Source: an uncultured Actinomycetota bacterium (GTDB lineage Bacteria; Actinomycetota; Actinomycetes; Propionibacteriales; Actinopolymorphaceae). Taken from it: a stretch of DNA of 24,000 nt. The notes under the pieces were generated by a model. The model worked only from the letters and a program-made list of their open reading frames with translations. It had not been told where the DNA came from and did not search any database. Shown here piece by piece: positions 16,374 to 22,997 of this stretch. The translations under genes were made by a program, and so were the position numbers. Position 1 is the first letter of the stretch. Each line of letters starts with the position of its first letter. The stretch covers positions 38,612 through 62,611 of the forward strand of contig CAVRFE010000002.1 of NCBI GenBank assembly GCA_963720325.1. Reading direction: 5' to 3'.

Positions 16374-17638
16374 GCGGGCGGCGACGACCACAACGACAGG
16401 ACGGGTCAGCCGACAAACCCGCCCCGGCCAGACCGGCACCCGCGGACAAGACCGCGGGTGCGGACAAGACCGCGAGTGCGGACAAGACGGCGGCGGCGGA
16501 AAGACGCGCGGCGGCTGCCTCGACACGGCAGCGCAAGGACCAGGAACTCCAGGCCAAGGACCGCCAGATCGCCGAACTCCATCGCGAGTTCGAGGAGACC
16601 AACCGTGGCCTGATCGCGCTGCACGCCGAACTCGACGACGCCCGACAGGCCGAGGCCCGCCTCGCGGCGATCGTCCAGTCGTCGAACGACGCGATGTTCT
16701 CGATGACGCCGCAGAAGGTCATCCAGACCTGGAACGCCGGAGCGGAAGGCCTGCTCGGGTACTCCGCGGCTCAGATCGTCGGCCGCCCGATCGAGGTTCT
16801 GGTCGCGGGTGAGTCGCCGCCACAGTTCGACTCGGTACTGGAACGGATCCGTGCCGGTGAGCGCGCCGAGTCCTACGACACCCGCTGGCGGCGTGGCGAC
16901 GGATCGCTGACCGACGTGGTGGTCCGGGTGGCGGCGATGTGGGACGCGTCGGGTGCGCTGCTCGGCTTCTCCGTGGTGGCCAGCGACATCACCAATCGCC
17001 TACGTACGCAGGCGGAGTTGGCCGCGGCTCGCGCCGACTTCGAGGTGTCGGAGGACCGGGACCGCATTGCGCGGGACCTGCAGGACATGGTGATCCAGCG
17101 CGTCTTCCGGGCCGGTATGGCACTGGAGGGCATCGCCAGCCTGCTCAACCGTCCGGAGGCGGTCCTGCAGGTGGAGGCGGTGGTCGGCGAGTTGGACCTG
17201 ACGATCCAGGAGCTTCGGACGACCATCTTCGCCTTGCACGGCCGTCCGCAGAAGTCGGCGAGCCTGCGGGCGCAGCTGCTGGAGGCCGCGAGTGCGGCAC
17301 ATCCCGGTCTGGGCTTCGCTCCCGACGTGAGGTTCGACGGTCCGGTAGACGCCGCGGTCCCTGACGACGTCGCCCTTCGCGTGGTCGCCGTGGTCGAGGA
17401 AGCCCTGTCCAACATCGCCCGACACTCGCACGCGTCCACGACAGAGGTGTCGGTTCGCGCGGCTGAAGAGTTGGTGCTGACGGTCATGGACAACGGCGAG
17501 GACATGGACCGGGAAGCGATCGCCAGTGGACTGCGGAGCATCCGGGACCACGTGCATGCCCTCGGCGGGGCGTTCGAGGTGGTGAGCCAGTCCGACGGCG
17601 GTACCCGGATCGAGGCCCGGCTGCCCCTGTCGAGGTGA
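16370..17638 (+). CDS. PAS + HisKA_3-like + HATPase_c protein (DevS/NarX-type kinase core) lacking the phospho-acceptor His; probable pseudo-histidine kinase
   Basis: GTGA overlaps the upstream stop at 16370-16373. The N-terminus holds ADK-rich repeats and a coiled coil (ELQAKDRQIAELHREFEETNRGLIALHAELDD). The PAS region reads IVQSSNDAMFSM...WNAGAEGLLGYSAAQIVGRPI. The H-box reads DRIARDLQDMVIQRVF (Q where H is expected). N-box is EEALSNIARHS and G1 is DNGED. Confidence 0.8.
   Translation: MSGRRRPQRQDGSADKPAPARPAPADKTAGADKTASADKTAAAERRAAAASTRQRKDQELQAKDRQIAELHREFEETNRGLIALHAELDDARQAEARLAAIVQSSNDAMFSMTPQKVIQTWNAGAEGLLGYSAAQIVGRPIEVLVAGESPPQFDSVLERIRAGERAESYDTRWRRGDGSLTDVVVRVAAMWDASGALLGFSVVASDITNRLRTQAELAAARADFEVSEDRDRIARDLQDMVIQRVFRAGMALEGIASLLNRPEAVLQVEAVVGELDLTIQELRTTIFALHGRPQKSASLRAQLLEAASAAHPGLGFAPDVRFDGPVDAAVPDDVALRVVAVVEEALSNIARHSHASTTEVSVRAAEELVLTVMDNGEDMDREAIASGLRSIRDHVHALGGAFEVVSQSDGGTRIEARLPLSR
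16442..16495 (+). repeat. In-frame 18-nt tandem repeat x3 (GCGGACAAGACCGCGGGT and variants) encoding ADKTAG/ADKTAS/ADKTAA
   Basis: Units at 16442-16459, 16460-16477 and 16478-16495. A more diverged ADKPAP unit precedes them. Confidence 0.85.
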
Positions 17639-17648
17639 CATGTGTGGA

Positions 17649-17676
17649 GGTATCCCGGCAGCTTCGCCGGGATACC
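17649..17676. terminator. Hairpin 1 between convergent operons
   Basis: GGTATCCCGGC (17649-59), loop AGCTTC, then GCCGGGATACC (17666-76). The 11-bp stem is perfect and begins 11 nt after the TGA at 17638. Confidence 0.55.
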
Positions 17677-17681
17677 CCCGA

Positions 17682-17709
17682 CAGGTCGGCCGGGGACGTG
17701 GCCGACCTG
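17682..17709. terminator. Hairpin 2 between convergent operons
   Basis: CAGGTCGGCC (17682-91), loop GGGGACGT, then GGCCGACCTG (17700-09). The 10-bp stem is perfect and ends 13 nt before the monooxygenase stop at 17722. Confidence 0.55.
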
Positions 17710-17721
17710 GTCCGTAGAACC

Positions 17722-18993
17722 TCAGGCGGCCGCCGCGCGGCTGGCGATGTGCTCCACGATGTGGGCGGCATCATCGCCGACGCCGGCGAAGACCGACGAC
17801 GGTTCGGAGTGCAGCCAGGGCAGCCCGATCGCGTAGAGCCCGGGGTGGATCGTCACGCCGCGCTCGTGCCGCGGGTACCCCCACTCGTCGAACACCGGCA
17901 GGTCGACCCAACCGAAGTCGAGCTGGTAGCCGGTCGCCCACACGACCGAGCGGATCCCGGCGGCGTCGAGGTCGAGATCGGTGACGGTGGGCGGCGTGAA
18001 CGTGTCGTACCGCCGATCGTCCAGTGGCGCGTCGATGCCCGCGGCCTCGATGTACGCGTCGAACAGCGGCTTGAACTCCTGGTCGAACCCTGACTCAGCG
18101 AACGCCAACCGCTCGGCGAGATCGGCACTGAACTGCACCCGGGCGCCGTCTGCTGCCTCCAACCTCCCGTACAGATGAACGCCGTCCCGGGCGAACCGGC
18201 GCAGGCTGAGGTCGTGGCCACCATCCTTGCCGGACACGTGCGGGTCGCACCCGAACCGCGCCGCCGGCGACGGCAGGTCGGCGACCGTCGGGAAGTGGAT
18301 GCCCACCTCGGCACCGTGCACGACCGTCTGCATCAGCCAGTAGATGAGGTCCTTTCCGCGGTAGCGGCGTGGCGCGGCCGGACACATCCCGACCGCGAGG
18401 TGCACGTCACGCCCCGACTGGTACAGCTCCTCGGCGATCTGCGCACCGGACTGGCCGGTGCCGACGACGAGGACGCCACCCTCGACGAGTTGGGACGGTC
18501 GCCGGTAGTCGCTGGAGTGCAGCTGGTTGATGTGGTCGGGCAGCTGGTCAGCCGGAGACGGGATCTTCGGCTTCTGGTAGGCGCCGGTCGCGAGCACGAC
18601 GTTGCGCGCCACGTAGGTCTGCCCCTGGTCTGTGTGCGCCTCGAGCCGGCCGACGGACGAGGCCAGCCTGCGGACGCTGGTGCCGAGCCGCACCGGGGCA
18701 TCGAAGGAACCGGCGTACTCCTGGACGTACTTCACCACGTCGTCACGGGCCATGAACCCGTCGGGATCGGGTCCGTCGTACTCCATGCCGGGCAGCCGGA
18801 GGTGGAAGTTGGGTGCGACCAGCGTCAGGCTGTCCCACCGGTCCTGCCAGCTGCCGCCGAGTTGGTTGCGGCGTTCGAGGACGAGGTGGTCGACGCCTGC
18901 CTTGGTGAGCCAGTAGCTCGTCGCCAGTCCGGCCTGTCCGCCACCGATCACCAGGGTGTCGACGATCTCGCGGCCATCTTCAGTTGTGCTCAT
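17722..18993 (-). CDS. FAD/NAD(P)-dependent flavin monooxygenase-type oxidoreductase (COG2072-like)
   Basis: The FAD motif is LVIGGGQAGLA and the second dinucleotide motif is VLVVGTGQSGAQIAEEL; also ATGY. The ATG at 18993 overlaps the upstream stop (ATGA). Confidence 0.8.
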   Translation of the reverse strand: MSTTEDGREIVDTLVIGGGQAGLATSYWLTKAGVDHLVLERRNQLGGSWQDRWDSLTLVAPNFHLRLPGMEYDGPDPDGFMARDDVVKYVQEYAGSFDAPVRLGTSVRRLASSVGRLEAHTDQGQTYVARNVVLATGAYQKPKIPSPADQLPDHINQLHSSDYRRPSQLVEGGVLVVGTGQSGAQIAEELYQSGRDVHLAVGMCPAAPRRYRGKDLIYWLMQTVVHGAEVGIHFPTVADLPSPAARFGCDPHVSGKDGGHDLSLRRFARDGVHLYGRLEAADGARVQFSADLAERLAFAESGFDQEFKPLFDAYIEAAGIDAPLDDRRYDTFTPPTVTDLDLDAAGIRSVVWATGYQLDFGWVDLPVFDEWGYPRHERGVTIHPGLYAIGLPWLHSEPSSVFAGVGDDAAHIVEHIASRAAAA

Positions 18994-19907
18994 CGTGCGG
19001 TCCTTTCCTGACCAGTGCGGTCGAGAGCAGTCCGCAGTGTGCGGACGAACGCGTCGGGCGCTTCCATGGGCGGGTCGTCGCCGCAGTCCTCGATCACGTA
19101 CAACGGCCAGGCATGCCGGGCGCTCGCGGCCTCGGCGATCGTCAGCGGCGTAGCGAGGTCGTGCCGGCCCCAGATGAGCGCGGTCGGGGTGGTGATGCGG
19201 ACCAGCCCGTCCGCCGGTATCGGCGGTCCACCCATCTCGGCCATCAGGACCTCGAGCGACGCCTGGACGCTCGGCGTCTGGATCCGCTCGACGTTGTACG
19301 CCTGGAACGCCGGCCAGTGCGCACCCATGTCGCCGCGCAGCCGGTCGAGGTCGGACGCGCAGTGCTGCCAGAGCCGGTCGTGGGTGTCGTCGTTGGGCCG
19401 GCCGAGGAACTCGTGCAGCGCGAAACCGAACTGGGGCGCAGGATCGAACGGCACCAGGCCGAGCGAGTCGACCAGGACCACACCGGCAAGCGTGCCGTCG
19501 GGAACGCTGCTGGCGAAGCGGGCGGCGATCGCGCCGCCGAGGGCGAAGCCGACCAGGACGGGTGGAGCGGCACAGGTCTGCTCGACGAGTTCGCCGAGCC
19601 AGGTCAGGACTCGGTCGCCGGTCAGGTCCGCTTCGGTGAGGTGCGATTCACCCTGGCCGGGCAGGTCCGGTACGACGACTCGATGGGTCGTCACCAGATC
19701 GGGGATCACCCGCATCCAGTGGGTGGCGTTTCCGCCCGGGCCGTGCAGGAGGATCATCGGTGCGCCGGCGCCGCCTTCCAGAACGGCGGTCGAGACGCCC
19801 GCGAGCTGGAGACGGCGCTGGGTGACCGGCAGGCCGGCCAGCAGTTGGTCGCGGGCTCCGACTGTTGGCGGGGCCTCAGGTGTCGACGTGTCGATCGGAC
19901 TCATCAT
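18990..19907 (-). CDS. Alpha/beta-hydrolase-fold protein (meta-cleavage-product hydrolase-like) with substituted catalytic Ser and His
   Basis: AGGAG lies upstream of ATGATG 19907/19904. The oxyanion region is LLHGPGGNATHW. The nucleophile elbow reads LVGFALGGA (Ala codon GCC at 19542-19544). The C-terminal motif reads IEDCGDDPPMEAPDAF (Asp codon GAC at 19077-19079 where His is expected). Confidence 0.8.
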   Translation of the reverse strand: MMSPIDTSTPEAPPTVGARDQLLAGLPVTQRRLQLAGVSTAVLEGGAGAPMILLHGPGGNATHWMRVIPDLVTTHRVVVPDLPGQGESHLTEADLTGDRVLTWLGELVEQTCAAPPVLVGFALGGAIAARFASSVPDGTLAGVVLVDSLGLVPFDPAPQFGFALHEFLGRPNDDTHDRLWQHCASDLDRLRGDMGAHWPAFQAYNVERIQTPSVQASLEVLMAEMGGPPIPADGLVRITTPTALIWGRHDLATPLTIAEAASARHAWPLYVIEDCGDDPPMEAPDAFVRTLRTALDRTGQERTAR

Positions 19908-20056
19908 CGGGTGCTCCTGGTGGTTCTGTTGGTACCTGCGACGCTAAGGAGTACGTCGACCTCGGCGCGTCGGGAGAAACACGCACATCGCCGGGCAGCG
20001 GCGGCATGGGTATTTCTGTGTAGCTTGCGCGAACCACCCGAGTCGGCCGGGGCGGG

Positions 20057-21709
20057 TTAGACCAGACCGTTCTCGTACGCGTAGGCAGTCGCGGCGGCGC
20101 GGGAGGAAAGTCCGAGTTTGGTGAAGATGTTGCTGATGTGTCGCGCCACGGTCTTCTCGCTGAGGAACAGGTCGGCGGCGATGGCGCGGTTGCTCTTGCC
20201 GGCGGCAACGAGGCGGATCACCTGCACCTCGCGCGCTGTCAACCCGCGCTTGGCACCGGCGTCCGGGCCGAGCTGGGTCAGCGACTCGACGCGGGCGAGG
20301 TCGGGTCCTGCTTCGAGCTGACCGAAGACCAGCCGGGCGGCGTCGAGTTCCATCTCGGCGGTGTCGGTGTCGCGGAGTTGGCGGCACGCCAGGGCTACCA
20401 GGACCCTCGCCCTGGCCGCCTCGTACGGCGCGTCCAGCCCGTGCCAGACCCTCCAGGCGTGCCGTAACGGTGCGAGCGCCGACGTGGCGTCGCCTTCGGC
20501 GAGCAGCACCGCGCCGGCGGCGTGGTCGGCCATCGCCTGGACCGGCGGGGCGCCCAACCCCGCTGCGATCCTGGCCAGTCCGTCGGCGGCGCCGCGGGCC
20601 TGCGGTACGTCATCGTTGGCCAGACTGATCTCCACGTACGCCGACAGCAGCCTGGCGCGCAGGACCCCTTCCGGGGCCTCCTCCAACGCTCGCCGGAGCG
20701 CCGCCTCGGCCGCCTCGAGCTGGCCCTGCGCGAGTCGCAGCAGCGCCAGTCCCGGTTGCGGCTGTCGTCCGTACTGGCTGGCCTGCCGGTAGTCGTGTTC
20801 GGCCGCGGCGAAGTCTCCGCGCAACCGGTGCAGCTCGCCCTGCTGGTAGAGCGCGTCCGCGACGGCCGGCTGACCGGGTGGGTGGGACAGCAAGGTGTAG
20901 GCGCGTTGGGCGGCGTCGACCGCGCCGTGCCACTCGCCGTGCAGCTGCAGGATCTCCGAACGGTGTACGAGGCACGCACCCCGGTAGGGAACCAGGTCGG
21001 GCTGGGAGAGGCACCAGTTGTTCAGTGCCGCGGTCCACTCCCGCGCCCGGCTCAGGTCGAAGGTCTCCTGGCAGGCCCGAATCACCGCGCAGTAGACGAT
21101 TCCGACCACGATCGGGGACAGGTCGCCGGCCGTGGCGGCCACCATCACCTCGTCCAGGAGCTCGCGTCCGCCGGTGATGTCGCCACGCTCGATCAGCGCC
21201 TGTCCGCGCCCTAGCCGGCCGAACGCCAACAGGTCGGCGTCGCCGAACCGGGTACCGATGGCAACCGTCTCATCGAACAGCGCGTCGCTGCTGTCGGCGT
21301 TCTCGTCGAGCCGCACCAGCGCCTCGGGCACTATCAGGTAGCCGCGTTCAACGCAGTCTCGTCCGCACTCGTCCAGCACCCGGCGCGCTCGGGCCAGCCA
21401 GCCGCCGCTGCGCGCCATCTCGCCGCGCAGCAGCAGCAGGAGTGCCAACCAGAACCCGCAGCGTGCCGCGCGCGCGGGCTGGTCCAGGCCGACGAAGAGG
21501 TGATGGGCGCGTGCCCACAGGTCGAAGCTCTCGGCGTCCTTGCCGACCAGGTAGGCGGTCACCGCCAGCCGCTCGACGTCGGCAGCCGGCAGCGGTGACG
21601 CCTCGTCCGCGGCCACCAGCTGGGTGTACGCGGCACCCCACGCCTGCCGGTCGAAGGAGTTCCGCCCACGTTCGAGCGTGTCGGAACCATCGGCAGGTGC
21701 TGCGGTCAT
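20057..21709 (-). CDS. LuxR-family transcriptional regulator with a large N-terminal TPR-like helical domain (no ATPase module)
   Basis: The C-terminal HTH reads [51 protein letters not shown]. About 480 aa of helical repeats lie upstream of it. Confidence 0.85.
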
Positions 21710-21772: not shown

Positions 21773-22102
21773 TCAGCCTGGGTGCACCGTGACGAGTTTT
21801 TCGAACACGAACTCGTGCTTGAGGAAGGAGACGTCGTACTCGTGACCCGGATACGGCGGCATGAGCGGCGCGCACTGGATCAGCCGCCAGCCGTCCTGCA
21901 GTGCCGCGACCCCGGTCTCGTACGGCGGCTCGTCGCTGTCGCCCGTCGTCGGAGTGGTCCGGGCGGTCCCGTCGTAGGACGACCAGCCGACGACACCGCC
22001 GTCGAGTGCGGAGGTGTTGAGGTAGAGGACGAGGACCTGCTGGCGGACGACCAGACCGGTCCCGGCGTCGGTTGCTCGCGCGCTTTGCGTGTCGGTGCTC
22101 AT
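21773..22102 (-). CDS. Small hypothetical protein (109 aa), translationally coupled to the PhyH-family gene
   Basis: An ATGA overlap at 22099-22102 couples it to the upstream gene. GC3 is high throughout. I recognised no domain. Confidence 0.6.
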   Translation of the reverse strand: MSTDTQSARATDAGTGLVVRQQVLVLYLNTSALDGGVVGWSSYDGTARTTPTTGDSDEPPYETGVAALQDGWRLIQCAPLMPPYPGHEYDVSFLKHEFVFEKLVTVHPG

Positions 22103-22983
22103 GGGGTCACCCTTCGCTGCGTGGCGGCCGTGACGACCCGCCGCGGACGGTTGCTCACGCGGGTGGCCCAGTAGTCGAGGTCGAAGGTGTCGTCACCGGT
22201 CAGAGCCCGCCACATCATGATCCGGTTGTAGAACTCCAGGCGCGCGGTGGCGTTCTCGTACCACGGGAAGCGGGTGCGCAGCTCGTCGATCACTGCCGGG
22301 TCGGCCAGGTCGTCGGTGTTCCACAGCCGGATCTGCCGCACGGTCGGGTTGAACCTGATCTTGAACATGTAGCGCTTGATGTCGCTGTCGTTGCGCCGGC
22401 CGCCGTGCCAGATGCCGTGGTGGACGATCACGACGGTGCCGGCGGGACACACGAGACGGTTCTGGCCGCGGAGGTTCTGGTAGCGCCCCGTGTCGGTCTC
22501 GTTGATCCGCCGCAGGTGGCTGCCCGGGACGCTCAGGGTGCCGCCCATCTCGAGGGTCACGTCCTGCGGGTAGTACATGAGCTGGACGTCGAACGCGTCC
22601 GTGCGTACGTCGATGATCGCGTCGCCATGCAGGTGCTGGGCCTGGCCCTGGTGCGGCTGGCGGATGTGGACCGCGTGGTGGTCGATGGTCGGATCTGGAC
22701 CGACCAGGCTGTGCAGGGCGCCGGCGATGTCGGGCAGTTCGACGAGGCGACGGGCGAAGGAACCCTCGGGATATGTCTCCTCGACGGGGGTCCCGTAGGG
22801 CGCGGCCGGGATGCCGGCCTCGAAGACGTCGATCGCCTGCGCGTTCATCTCGTCGGGGACAACCGCGTCCATGCGGACCAGCCCGTGCGCGACGAAGCGG
22901 GCCATCTGGACCGATGTCAGCAGGTGCTTCCGGGCAGGGTGGCGGGGGTCTGCGGATCCCCTCTCCACGAGATACTGGCTCAT
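22099..22983 (-). CDS. Phytanoyl-CoA dioxygenase (PhyH) family Fe(II)/2-oxoglutarate-dependent oxygenase
   Basis: The facial-triad candidates are HGD within QHLHGDAIID and the distal His in VVIVHHGIWHGG; also RYMFKIRF. The start is ATG 22983; the ORF track gives GTG 22992. Confidence 0.8.
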   Translation of the reverse strand: MSQYLVERGSADPRHPARKHLLTSVQMARFVAHGLVRMDAVVPDEMNAQAIDVFEAGIPAAPYGTPVEETYPEGSFARRLVELPDIAGALHSLVGPDPTIDHHAVHIRQPHQGQAQHLHGDAIIDVRTDAFDVQLMYYPQDVTLEMGGTLSVPGSHLRRINETDTGRYQNLRGQNRLVCPAGTVVIVHHGIWHGGRRNDSDIKRYMFKIRFNPTVRQIRLWNTDDLADPAVIDELRTRFPWYENATARLEFYNRIMMWRALTGDDTFDLDYWATRVSNRPRRVVTAATQRRVTP

Positions 22984-22997
22984 ACCCACCACGCTAG

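Follow-up and report, generated by a model that had tools for sequence, protein, structure and literature searches.

Alpha/beta-hydrolase-fold proteins without catalytic serine and histidine form a phylum-spanning clade encoded behind a TPR-GerE regulator and joined to different tailoring enzymes

What can an alpha/beta-hydrolase-fold protein do once both its nucleophile and its catalytic histidine have been replaced? The question is raised by a gene in a 24,000-nucleotide stretch of DNA from an uncultured bacterium of the Actinopolymorphaceae (Actinomycetota; assembly GCA_963720325.1, contig CAVRFE010000002.1, positions 38,612 to 62,611 of the forward strand), referred to here as the window and numbered from its first letter. 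The product of the gene, designated ABH below, carries alanine and aspartate where serine and histidine are expected. To our knowledge, the loop histidine is regarded as the single universal catalytic residue of the alpha/beta-hydrolases, which are among the best-studied enzyme folds. The present analysis places ABH in a widespread clade in which both residues are replaced and the former active site appears to have been rebuilt. The protein may be a non-hydrolytic module that holds a small molecule and acts as the physical partner of an adjacent or fused tailoring enzyme, although this reading is held tentatively. The gene and the codons that bear on the question are as follows.

18990-19907, minus strand: ABH, a 305-residue alpha/beta-hydrolase-fold protein without catalytic Ser and His (open reading frame, Pfam, AlphaFold, Foldseek)
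19542-19544, minus strand: GCC, codon of Ala122 at the nucleophile-elbow position (G-F-A-L-G-G; PDB alignments)
19074-19079, minus strand: GAC GAC, codons of Asp277 at the catalytic-His position (19077-19079) and of Asp278, the clade-defining 'DDP' motif (PDB alignments)
19158-19166, minus strand: R248-H249-D250 of WGRHD, with the canonical acid Asp250 kept (representative alignment)
19740-19745, minus strand: H55-G56, the oxyanion-hole motif, kept (representative alignment)
19359-19382, minus strand: lid helix with the clade-specific residues H176, W180 and C183 (comparison of dead and live sequences)

ABH scored above the Pfam cut-offs for Abhydrolase_6 (E=9e-20; 72.7 bits, cut-off 26.3) and Abhydrolase_1 (E=3e-16; 60.2 bits, cut-off 25.8), and its best relatives among PDB chains in phmmer searches were lipases, esterases and meta-cleavage-product (MCP) hydrolases (4opm at 2e-16, 6i8w, 4x00, 1j1i and 1c4x). 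In these alignments the ABH elbow GFALGG was matched with GHSLGG or GNSMGG of the PDB chains, which puts Ala122 at the nucleophile position. Likewise, DCGDDPPMEAP was matched with NVGHMPILEA or NCGHVPMVERP, which puts Asp277 at the catalytic-His position, aligned with the His of 4opm, 6i8w and 1j1i. An AlphaFold model built on 36 relatives (pLDDT 93.5, pTM 0.91) displayed the canonical order of strands and helices, with residue 122 between strand 117-121 and helix 123-134 and residue 277 in the loop that follows strand 269-272 and precedes the C-terminal helices (279-282, 284-304). Foldseek searches with the model returned canonical hydrolases only, many at a probability of 1.00, including PlaF 6i8w (TM 0.77), BphD 1c4x (TM 0.76, root-mean-square deviation 2.8), HsaD and MhpC. 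With profile scores above the gathering threshold and canonical topology, ABH is a member of the alpha/beta-hydrolase fold superfamily. The elbow after strand beta5, in which the pattern Sm-x-Nu-x-Sm-Sm calls for Ser, Cys or Asp, holds Ala122, and the loop after the last strand holds Asp277 in place of His; the acid after beta7 (D250) and the oxyanion motif after beta3 (H55-G56) are present. ABH is not a catalytic member of the superfamily because the two defining features, the nucleophile and the loop His, were sought and are lacking; on these residue assignments, canonical covalent alpha/beta-hydrolase catalysis is excluded. The initial annotation, which was made from the letters of the window, had proposed the same Ala and Asp replacements, each one base from a Ser or His codon (GCC from Ser TCC, GAC from His CAC), with the oxyanion HG and the acid residue kept, and the alignments and the modeled topology bear out these assignments.

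A word-indexed search with ABH yielded 3,890 homologues, the best 120 of which were 58-67% identical to it. Within the 25 commonest motif variants, which cover 103 of 121 sequences, the elbow residue was A, L, I, T or V and the His position was occupied by Asp followed by Asp-Pro ('DDP'). A profile search over 1.84 billion cluster representatives (clusters at 50% identity) assigned 321 clusters to the ABH family at E <= 1e-30 and 13,200 to the wider superfamily at 1e-10; the family size is at least 321 clusters, with several hundred genome loci in at least eight phyla. Among the best 150 representatives, position 122 was Ser in 27 and otherwise mostly L, A, V, I, G or T, and position 277 was Asp in 40 and His in 13; D250 (73/77), R248 (72/77) and H55 (109/117) were largely kept. 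A dead clade was defined by D277 together with the absence of Ser122 and contained 125 full-length sequences, in which D277 is by definition at 100%, D278 is at 96%, and the elbow position is A, L, V, I, G or T. These approximately 125 relatives derive from at least eight phyla, are 45-67% identical and combine a non-Ser elbow with the conserved DDP motif and no stops. A nearly identical (99%) copy of ABH was also found on an independent record (P0001), and GC content at third codon positions is 0.85 for the whole gene, with each block in the range 0.80-0.93, in agreement with the high values described in the initial annotation. The conservation supports the view, also taken there, that the gene is under selection and not decaying, with replacement of Ser and His being a family-wide trait across phyla. 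Certain sub-clades, in Streptomyces loci, additionally have lost D250 (HGRYGLQV, HGRHGLQV).

The family also includes eight full-length live sisters with GxSxGG, GH and WGRHD motifs (P0139, P0148, P0149, P0179, P0187, P0191, P0219 and P0235), which match the family profile at E values of 1e-55 to 1e-94. Ser and His co-occur in that all eight Ser-containing sisters have His at position 277, followed by V, I, L or A at 278. One of them, P0139, is 49% identical to ABH of the window, and WGRHD, C112, Y204 and the overall length are common to the live sisters and ABH. Apparent intermediates were seen as well: P0222 keeps Ser with Asp-Asp at the His position, and P0156 has Gly at the elbow with His kept. 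When the 125 dead sequences were compared with the eight live ones, 29 positions were conserved at 80% or more in the dead clade and were rare in the live set, and these clustered in the lid (F160, H176, W180, C183, R191, N205, M222 and R237) and in the former catalytic loops (P57, A252, T253, D277 and D278). H176 (90%), W180 (91%) and C183 (97%) are replaced by A, A/M and V, respectively, in the live sisters, which also lack N205 and D278; P57 is 98% conserved in the dead clade. Judged from this pattern of gains, the site of ABH apparently was rebuilt, not merely inactivated. On the Logan contig that encodes P0139 (L168), the gene string is SnoaL_2, an unknown gene, the ABH gene with live Ser and His, and a flavin monooxygenase-like gene (37% identity); no homologue of the LuxR-type regulator described below and no operator was present upstream of P0139 within the 4.3 kb examined. 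The flavin monooxygenase-like gene behind this live sister therefore suggests that a pairing of hydrolase and flavin monooxygenase may predate loss of the triad.

The initial annotation further held that ABH overlaps, and is obligately co-expressed with, a downstream flavin monooxygenase (FMO). The relevant features in the window are listed here.

17722-18993, minus strand: FMO, a 423-residue flavin monooxygenase-like protein (Pfam Pyr_redox_3; sister of the MSMEG_0569 family)
18990-18993, minus strand: ATGA, in which the stop of ABH overlaps the start of FMO (translational coupling; read from the sequence and the open reading frames)
19914-19918, minus strand: AGGAG, Shine-Dalgarno sequence 6 nt upstream of the ABH ATG at 19907 (read from the sequence)

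The ATGA overlap is present as described. The coupled FMO scored 440.9 bits against TIGR04046, the MSMEG_0569 family model (cut-off 498.35), and 158.9 bits against the ArsO profile (cut-off 425), scores that place it in a sister family to the MSMEG_0569 flavin-dependent oxidoreductases and not within that family. ABH copies were present in three of five other genomes searched in the same genus, and the best of them are only 52-63% identical to that of the window. All five same-genus loci (two in G004, one in G005, and a single G001 locus seen in two overlapping views) have the order regulator-ABH-FMO, with FMO proteins 70-73% identical to that of the window. Their ABH elbows read GFALGG, GYALGG or GHLIGG, that of L163 being unmatched, and no His is found at the former His position, where C[GA]DDP is present in four of the five. 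The same gene order and an ABH without Ser and His recur in Actinopolymorpha (L002). The expectation that orthologues sharing the FMO neighbor would also be devoid of both residues was thereby confirmed, apart from the unmatched elbow. Stop and start codons of ABH and FMO overlap at three of five junctions examined, as ATGA in L164 and as TGATG in L002 and L165.

Across the family as a whole, FMO is a rare neighbor of ABH, occurring in approximately 4 of roughly 70 ABH loci, and coupling of the two is specific to the genus of the window and Actinopolymorpha. Obligate co-expression with an oxygenase did not hold up: often ABH has no other recognizable cargo beside it, and FMO as an obligate ABH partner was ruled out both by this rarity and by an FMO 73% identical to that of the window which lies behind a regulator homologue without ABH (L105). 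The wider proposal that the dead fold has a binding or delivery role, or an unusual mechanism, was supported in part: the Ser-His machinery is absent and ABH and FMO are joined in one known chain, but FMO is not a fixed companion. Neither the regulator and its conserved operator nor the rebuilt site was mentioned in the initial annotation.

The gene upstream of ABH encodes this regulator.

20057-21709, minus strand: regulator, a 550-residue TPR-like superhelix with a C-terminal GerE (LuxR-type) helix-turn-helix (HTH) domain (Pfam, alignment, AlphaFold)

The protein matches GerE PF00196 (68.2 bits, cut-off 23.5; E 4.7e-19) as well as TPR repeats, and by its C-terminal GerE HTH it belongs to the LuxR/GerE family. 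The AlphaFold model (pLDDT 91.3) comprises a superhelix of 26 helices followed by the HTH. Sequence matches in the PDB were the DNA-binding domains of VraR, NarL and DevR, and no relative was found there with the N-terminal 480 residues; fold searches yielded generic TPR superhelices only, of which the best matches were TPR subunits of the anaphase-promoting complex (APC/C). No ATPase domain was evident by Pfam or in the model. Four Cys residues (C207, C213, C233 and C246) are invariant in 26 regulator sequences from many phyla and lie on three consecutive helices, a candidate metal, iron-sulfur or redox-sensing site. The association with ABH was assessed in 80 ABH-seeded loci from species genomes, with a family member present in 62 loci (60 of the 80 plus two others). 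A regulator homologue adjoins ABH in 52 of these 62 loci, is full-length and 43-63% identical over approximately 545 residues, and nearly always is located directly upstream on the same strand. The phyla represented include Actinomycetota, Gemmatimonadota, Pseudomonadota, Bacteroidota/Balneolota, Chloroflexota, Acidobacteriota and Ignavibacteriales. The near-constant partner of ABH is the upstream TPR and GerE regulator, not FMO. In Variovorax sp. WS11 (L001) the regulator and ABH are divergently oriented, and ABH is followed by a gene for a KatG-like catalase-peroxidase (PF00141). A single protein, P0215 (820 residues), combines a GerE domain (496-527) with a family ABH domain (582-812) in one chain; it may be a true fusion of regulator and ABH, or else an artefact of read-through or assembly.

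The reciprocal relationship was different. In 78 further loci seeded with the regulator, ABH was located downstream in only 19, and an FMO-like gene was directly downstream in approximately 23. Other genes in this slot encode an S-adenosylmethionine (SAM) methyltransferase, a BBE-type flavin adenine dinucleotide (FAD) oxidase, a group-A FAD monooxygenase, an ACAD-like flavoprotein, a vanadium-haloperoxidase-like protein, a canonical GNSMG/GH hydrolase and other products. When the architectures of both locus sets were pooled, with a few loci duplicated between them, the regulator was followed by ABH alone in 32 loci, by ABH and BBE in 13 (plus variants), by ABH and methyltransferase in eight, by ABH and ACAD in three, and by ABH and FMO in two (plus L102, in which the order is FMO-ABH); FMO without ABH followed in 11 loci and methyltransferase without ABH in five. 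A tree of 115 regulators requires at least nine changes of ABH cargo on well-supported branches, and sister regulators with 99% support differ in cargo, L005 having ABH and L158 a methyltransferase. The tree does not match taxonomy, an indication of horizontal spread. Since the regulator occurs mostly without ABH and cargo is exchanged on the tree, ABH is one of several swappable cargo modules; a role as obligate co-receptor of the regulator was ruled out by the reciprocal scan and the tree. The cargo consists mostly of flavin- or peroxide-dependent oxidative enzymes and methyltransferases, which together with the four-Cys regulator suggests an inducible cassette for small-molecule modification or detoxification.

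Between regulator and cargo lies a conserved DNA element, whose parts in the window are the following.

19934-20027, minus strand: conserved operator/promoter element between regulator and cargo (spacer counts and alignment of 70 loci)
20006-20023, minus strand: CTACACAGAA-ATACCCAT, distal half-sites, with the heptamer TACCCAT at 20006-20012
20023-20016, minus strand: CTACACAG
20013-20006, minus strand: ATACCCAT
19966-19988, minus strand: ATGTGCGTG-TTTCTCCCGACGCG, degenerate third half-site and conserved TTCkCCCGAwGCG box
19979-19966, minus strand: TTTCTCCCGACGCG
19941-19946, minus strand: TAGCGT, candidate -10 hexamer (TAnnnT), of which the A and the last T are invariant across loci

The hexanucleotide TACCCA was present in 67 of 111 spacers after the regulator stop compared to none of 110 coding controls. 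Seventy non-redundant copies gave the consensus CT(ACAyAG/GGGTGG)AAw-yTACCCAy-N~17-TTGGGTGrTTCkCCCGAwGCG-N~20-TAnnnT, with no variation in ACCCA, in C.GA or in the A and the last T of the final hexamer. The element follows the regulator stop in most loci, across phyla and whatever the cargo. RNAalifold predicted no pairs over the 70 sequences and Rfam searches of the spacer element gave nothing above noise; a structured RNA or riboswitch was ruled out on these grounds, and the sequence therefore is viewed as a DNA element. The TACCCAT heptamer fits TACYYMT, which we take to be the NarL-type recognition heptamer. The final hexamer resembles a -10 box. A consensus scan of positions 17600-20200 for sigma-70 promoters and intrinsic terminators found none and no canonical -35, and a -10-like hexamer without a -35 consensus would be of the activator-dependent promoter type.

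In the genome from which the window derives, the window copy of the operator was the only match to the strict pattern with the -10 box. A second regulator/ABH pair is located at C3:1051619-1054257 (L084), with a regulator 80% identical and an ABH only 48% identical to those of the window. This ABH has additionally lost the oxyanion His (LVSGPG), no FMO is present in the 1.5 kb downstream, and of the element in its spacer just the promoter-proximal half is retained, including the TTCkCCCGAwGCG box. A third regulator (C3:166409-168022, minus strand; 41% identical) is followed by a full operator variant, GGTGGTTAGAACCACCCAC ... CCGACGCG ... TAAGGT, and by a small open reading frame beginning VPKYLIERSVPGA, for which the 40 residues tried gave no Pfam match. 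On the other side of the window regulator, a PhyH-family dioxygenase and a coupled 109-residue open reading frame occupy positions 21773-22992 (minus strand). As none of 82 related loci (L001-L082) contains a homologue of either, both were ruled out as parts of the module.

Gene fusions provide a second view of the partners of ABH. P0123 (738 residues) is a single ABH-FMO chain with a Gly/Ser-rich linker, encoded behind a LuxR-type regulator and the operator (L169). ABH-methyltransferase fusions that have a linker in common occur in Mesorhizobium sp. LMG 17147 and Rhizobium tibeticum, and because both of these are cultured isolates, of different genera, the fusions are regarded as real. ABH-BBE fusions were found in several independent clusters (P0126, P0128, P0125, P0136, P0011, L004, L036 and L059). 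Separately, in a number of long-read metagenome-assembled genomes (L052-L058, L061 and L062) matches to ABH and the regulator are split over two frames. These splits are most likely assembly indel errors and not pseudogenes, and they counsel caution in calling fusions from the same source.

The reading tentatively preferred, in which ABH is a non-hydrolytic holder of small molecules that partners a tailoring enzyme, may be set out as follows. ABH would descend from a live Ser/His hydrolase and would have lost canonical alpha/beta-hydrolase chemistry. The old active site would have become a new conserved polar pocket, for which H176, W180, C183, N205 and D277/D278 with the kept H55-G56 and D250 are candidate residues, and this pocket would hold a small molecule handled by the cassette. 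ABH would function physically with the tailoring enzyme, here the coupled FMO with which it may form a complex, and elsewhere presumably a BBE-type FAD oxidase or a SAM methyltransferase. The ABH-FMO operon would be transcribed from the candidate activator-type promoter just downstream of the regulator gene, and expression probably is switched on by the TPR and GerE regulator via the conserved operator in response to some signal. A partner role is supported by fusions to three unrelated enzyme classes, by translational coupling with FMO and by loss of the universal catalytic residues. It is supported further by the tolerance of sub-clades to additional loss of D250 or H55. Several observations weigh on the other side. 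The sole ABH-FMO fusion is on a contig with 2x coverage, and some of the BBE fusions derive from long-read metagenome-assembled genomes that also show indel-split genes. ABH is the only recognizable cargo in approximately 32 loci and therefore would act alone there, which is easier to square with an enzyme or a sequestering binder than with a purely accessory subunit. The conserved His, Cys, Asn and two Asp residues also would resemble a catalytic or metal site as much as a binding site.

The last two points lead to the strongest rival, that ABH is itself an enzyme whose catalytic center has been re-invented, a reading that is possible but doubtful. The center might use C183 and H176 as a thiol/imidazole pair, D277/D278 with R248 and D250 for acid-base chemistry or water activation, or a bound metal, and the oxyanion hole might support decarboxylation, tautomerization, lyase action or a one-step epoxide opening; the step would come before or after that of the flavoenzyme or methyltransferase. 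The occurrence of ABH in the regulator slot otherwise filled by FMO, FAD monooxygenase, BBE oxidase, methyltransferase, ACAD-like and haloperoxidase-like proteins is in keeping with enzymatic function, as is its status as sole cargo. Only the dead clade has gained the polar His, Cys, Asn and Asp, which are conserved there at 90-100%; this gain also fits catalysis, as do the retention of the oxyanion H55 in most representatives and the near fixation of P57. With live P0139 already beside an FMO-like gene, the logic of a two-step pathway would be older than the change in the site. However, we know of no alpha/beta-hydrolase-fold enzyme that functions without the loop His. Moreover, D250 has been lost in the Streptomyces loci and H55 in the LVSGPG paralogue of the same genome, and H176 and C183, seven residues apart on one helix, would not make an obvious dyad. 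The narrower proposition that the center was re-invented from Cys183/His176, Asp277/Asp278 and the old oxyanion hole, within a mobile, phylum-spanning and inducible detoxification or modification cassette, is unlikely. Were it true, the superfamily would gain its first catalytic type that is independent of the His loop, and the cassette would combine a four-Cys TPR-LuxR sensor with a conserved operator and with swappable cargo that is oxidative or methylating.

It is improbable that ABH instead acts as a co-regulator, that is, as a ligand receptor or anti-activator seated on the TPR superhelix of the LuxR-type regulator in the manner of Aes-MalT or PqsE-RhlR. The adjacency of the two genes in 52 of 62 loci would accord with such a role, as would the nature of TPR superhelices as protein-binding scaffolds, exemplified by the APC/C subunits among the fold matches, and the GerE and ABH domains within P0215. 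There is also a precedent in Escherichia coli, in which the esterase Aes directly binds and inhibits MalT, a LuxR-family, TPR-containing activator (PMC10427625). As with ABH, an alpha/beta-hydrolase-fold protein is tied there to a regulator of the GerE type whose sensor part is TPR-like. Aes, however, is catalytically active, is unlinked to malT and binds the ATPase domain of MalT (PMC10427625), whereas the window regulator has no such domain and its homologues occur mostly without ABH. Neither the NOD ATPase domain nor the mutual pairing that would typify an Aes-MalT system was found. The dependence is one-way (19 of 78 regulator-seeded loci), the sister regulators L005 and L158 differ in cargo and at least nine changes of ABH cargo are required, and ABH is fused repeatedly to enzymes but to a regulator in one case only. 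The remaining account, in which ABH is a hydrolase that is decaying or has been inactivated in this strain alone, or in which the two codons are sequencing errors, gains from each codon being one base from Ser or His, but is rejected because the replacements are conserved family-wide, recurring in approximately 125 full-length relatives of many phyla together with DDP and other clade-specific positions, and it is countered also by the GC content at third codon positions and the independent 99% copy.

Whichever of the better readings applies, the ABH clade is a natural experiment in the repurposing of an enzyme fold, in which either result, new chemistry or a dedicated binder, would be instructive. 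Annotation pipelines designate these proteins 'alpha/beta hydrolase' or 'pimeloyl-ACP methyl ester carboxylesterase', although canonical esterase chemistry should be impossible for them. As the operator is recognizable from Bacteroidota to Actinomycetota, it offers a handle with which promoter reporters could reveal the inducer and hence the substrate.

Among known systems, the MCP C-C hydrolases and esterases (BphD 1c4x, HsaD, MhpC 1u2e, CarC 1j1i and PlaF 6i8w) share fold and topology with ABH (TM 0.7-0.77, 20-25% identity). Three motifs are common to them and ABH as well: HG at the oxyanion hole, WGR.D in the acid loop, and E.P following the His loop. ABH differs from them in Ala122 for Ser and Asp277 for His, in F121 where the MCP hydrolases have Asn (GNSMGG) and in D278 where they have Trp after His. 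No NCBIfam model scored above its cut-off for ABH, and the equivalog scores for HsaD (41.5 vs. 400) and BphD (24.5 vs. 462) were far below; these scores and the lack of a triad ruled out an MCP hydrolase. Non-catalytic alpha/beta-fold proteins that act through partners are exemplified by the eukaryotic proteins ABHD5/CGI-58 (which activates ATGL), NDRG and the neuroligins, none of which is known to resemble ABH specifically in sequence. As in ABH, the fold is kept and the nucleophile is lost, and function is exerted with a partner protein or enzyme; for an ABHD5-like mode of action in ABH, the fusions to methyltransferase, BBE oxidase and FMO and the translational coupling are indirect support. 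ABHD5 retains the His, whereas in ABH both Ser and His are replaced and new conserved polar residues have been acquired; none of ABHD5, NDRG and the neuroligins was among the best 60 of the 249 PDB matches of ABH. A further parallel is tomato MKS1 (methylketone synthase 1), an alpha/beta-fold decarboxylase with Ala for Ser that performs non-hydrolytic chemistry in the old pocket. The likeness to ABH is by description, at the level of the superfamily, and unlike ABH this enzyme keeps the catalytic His. Literature searches aimed at this family or cassette gave no description of the clade, the DDP motif or the cassette of regulator, operator and cargo. The ABH clade thus is apparently an undescribed example of a kind that is already known, that of non-catalytic alpha/beta-fold proteins, most of which are eukaryotic.

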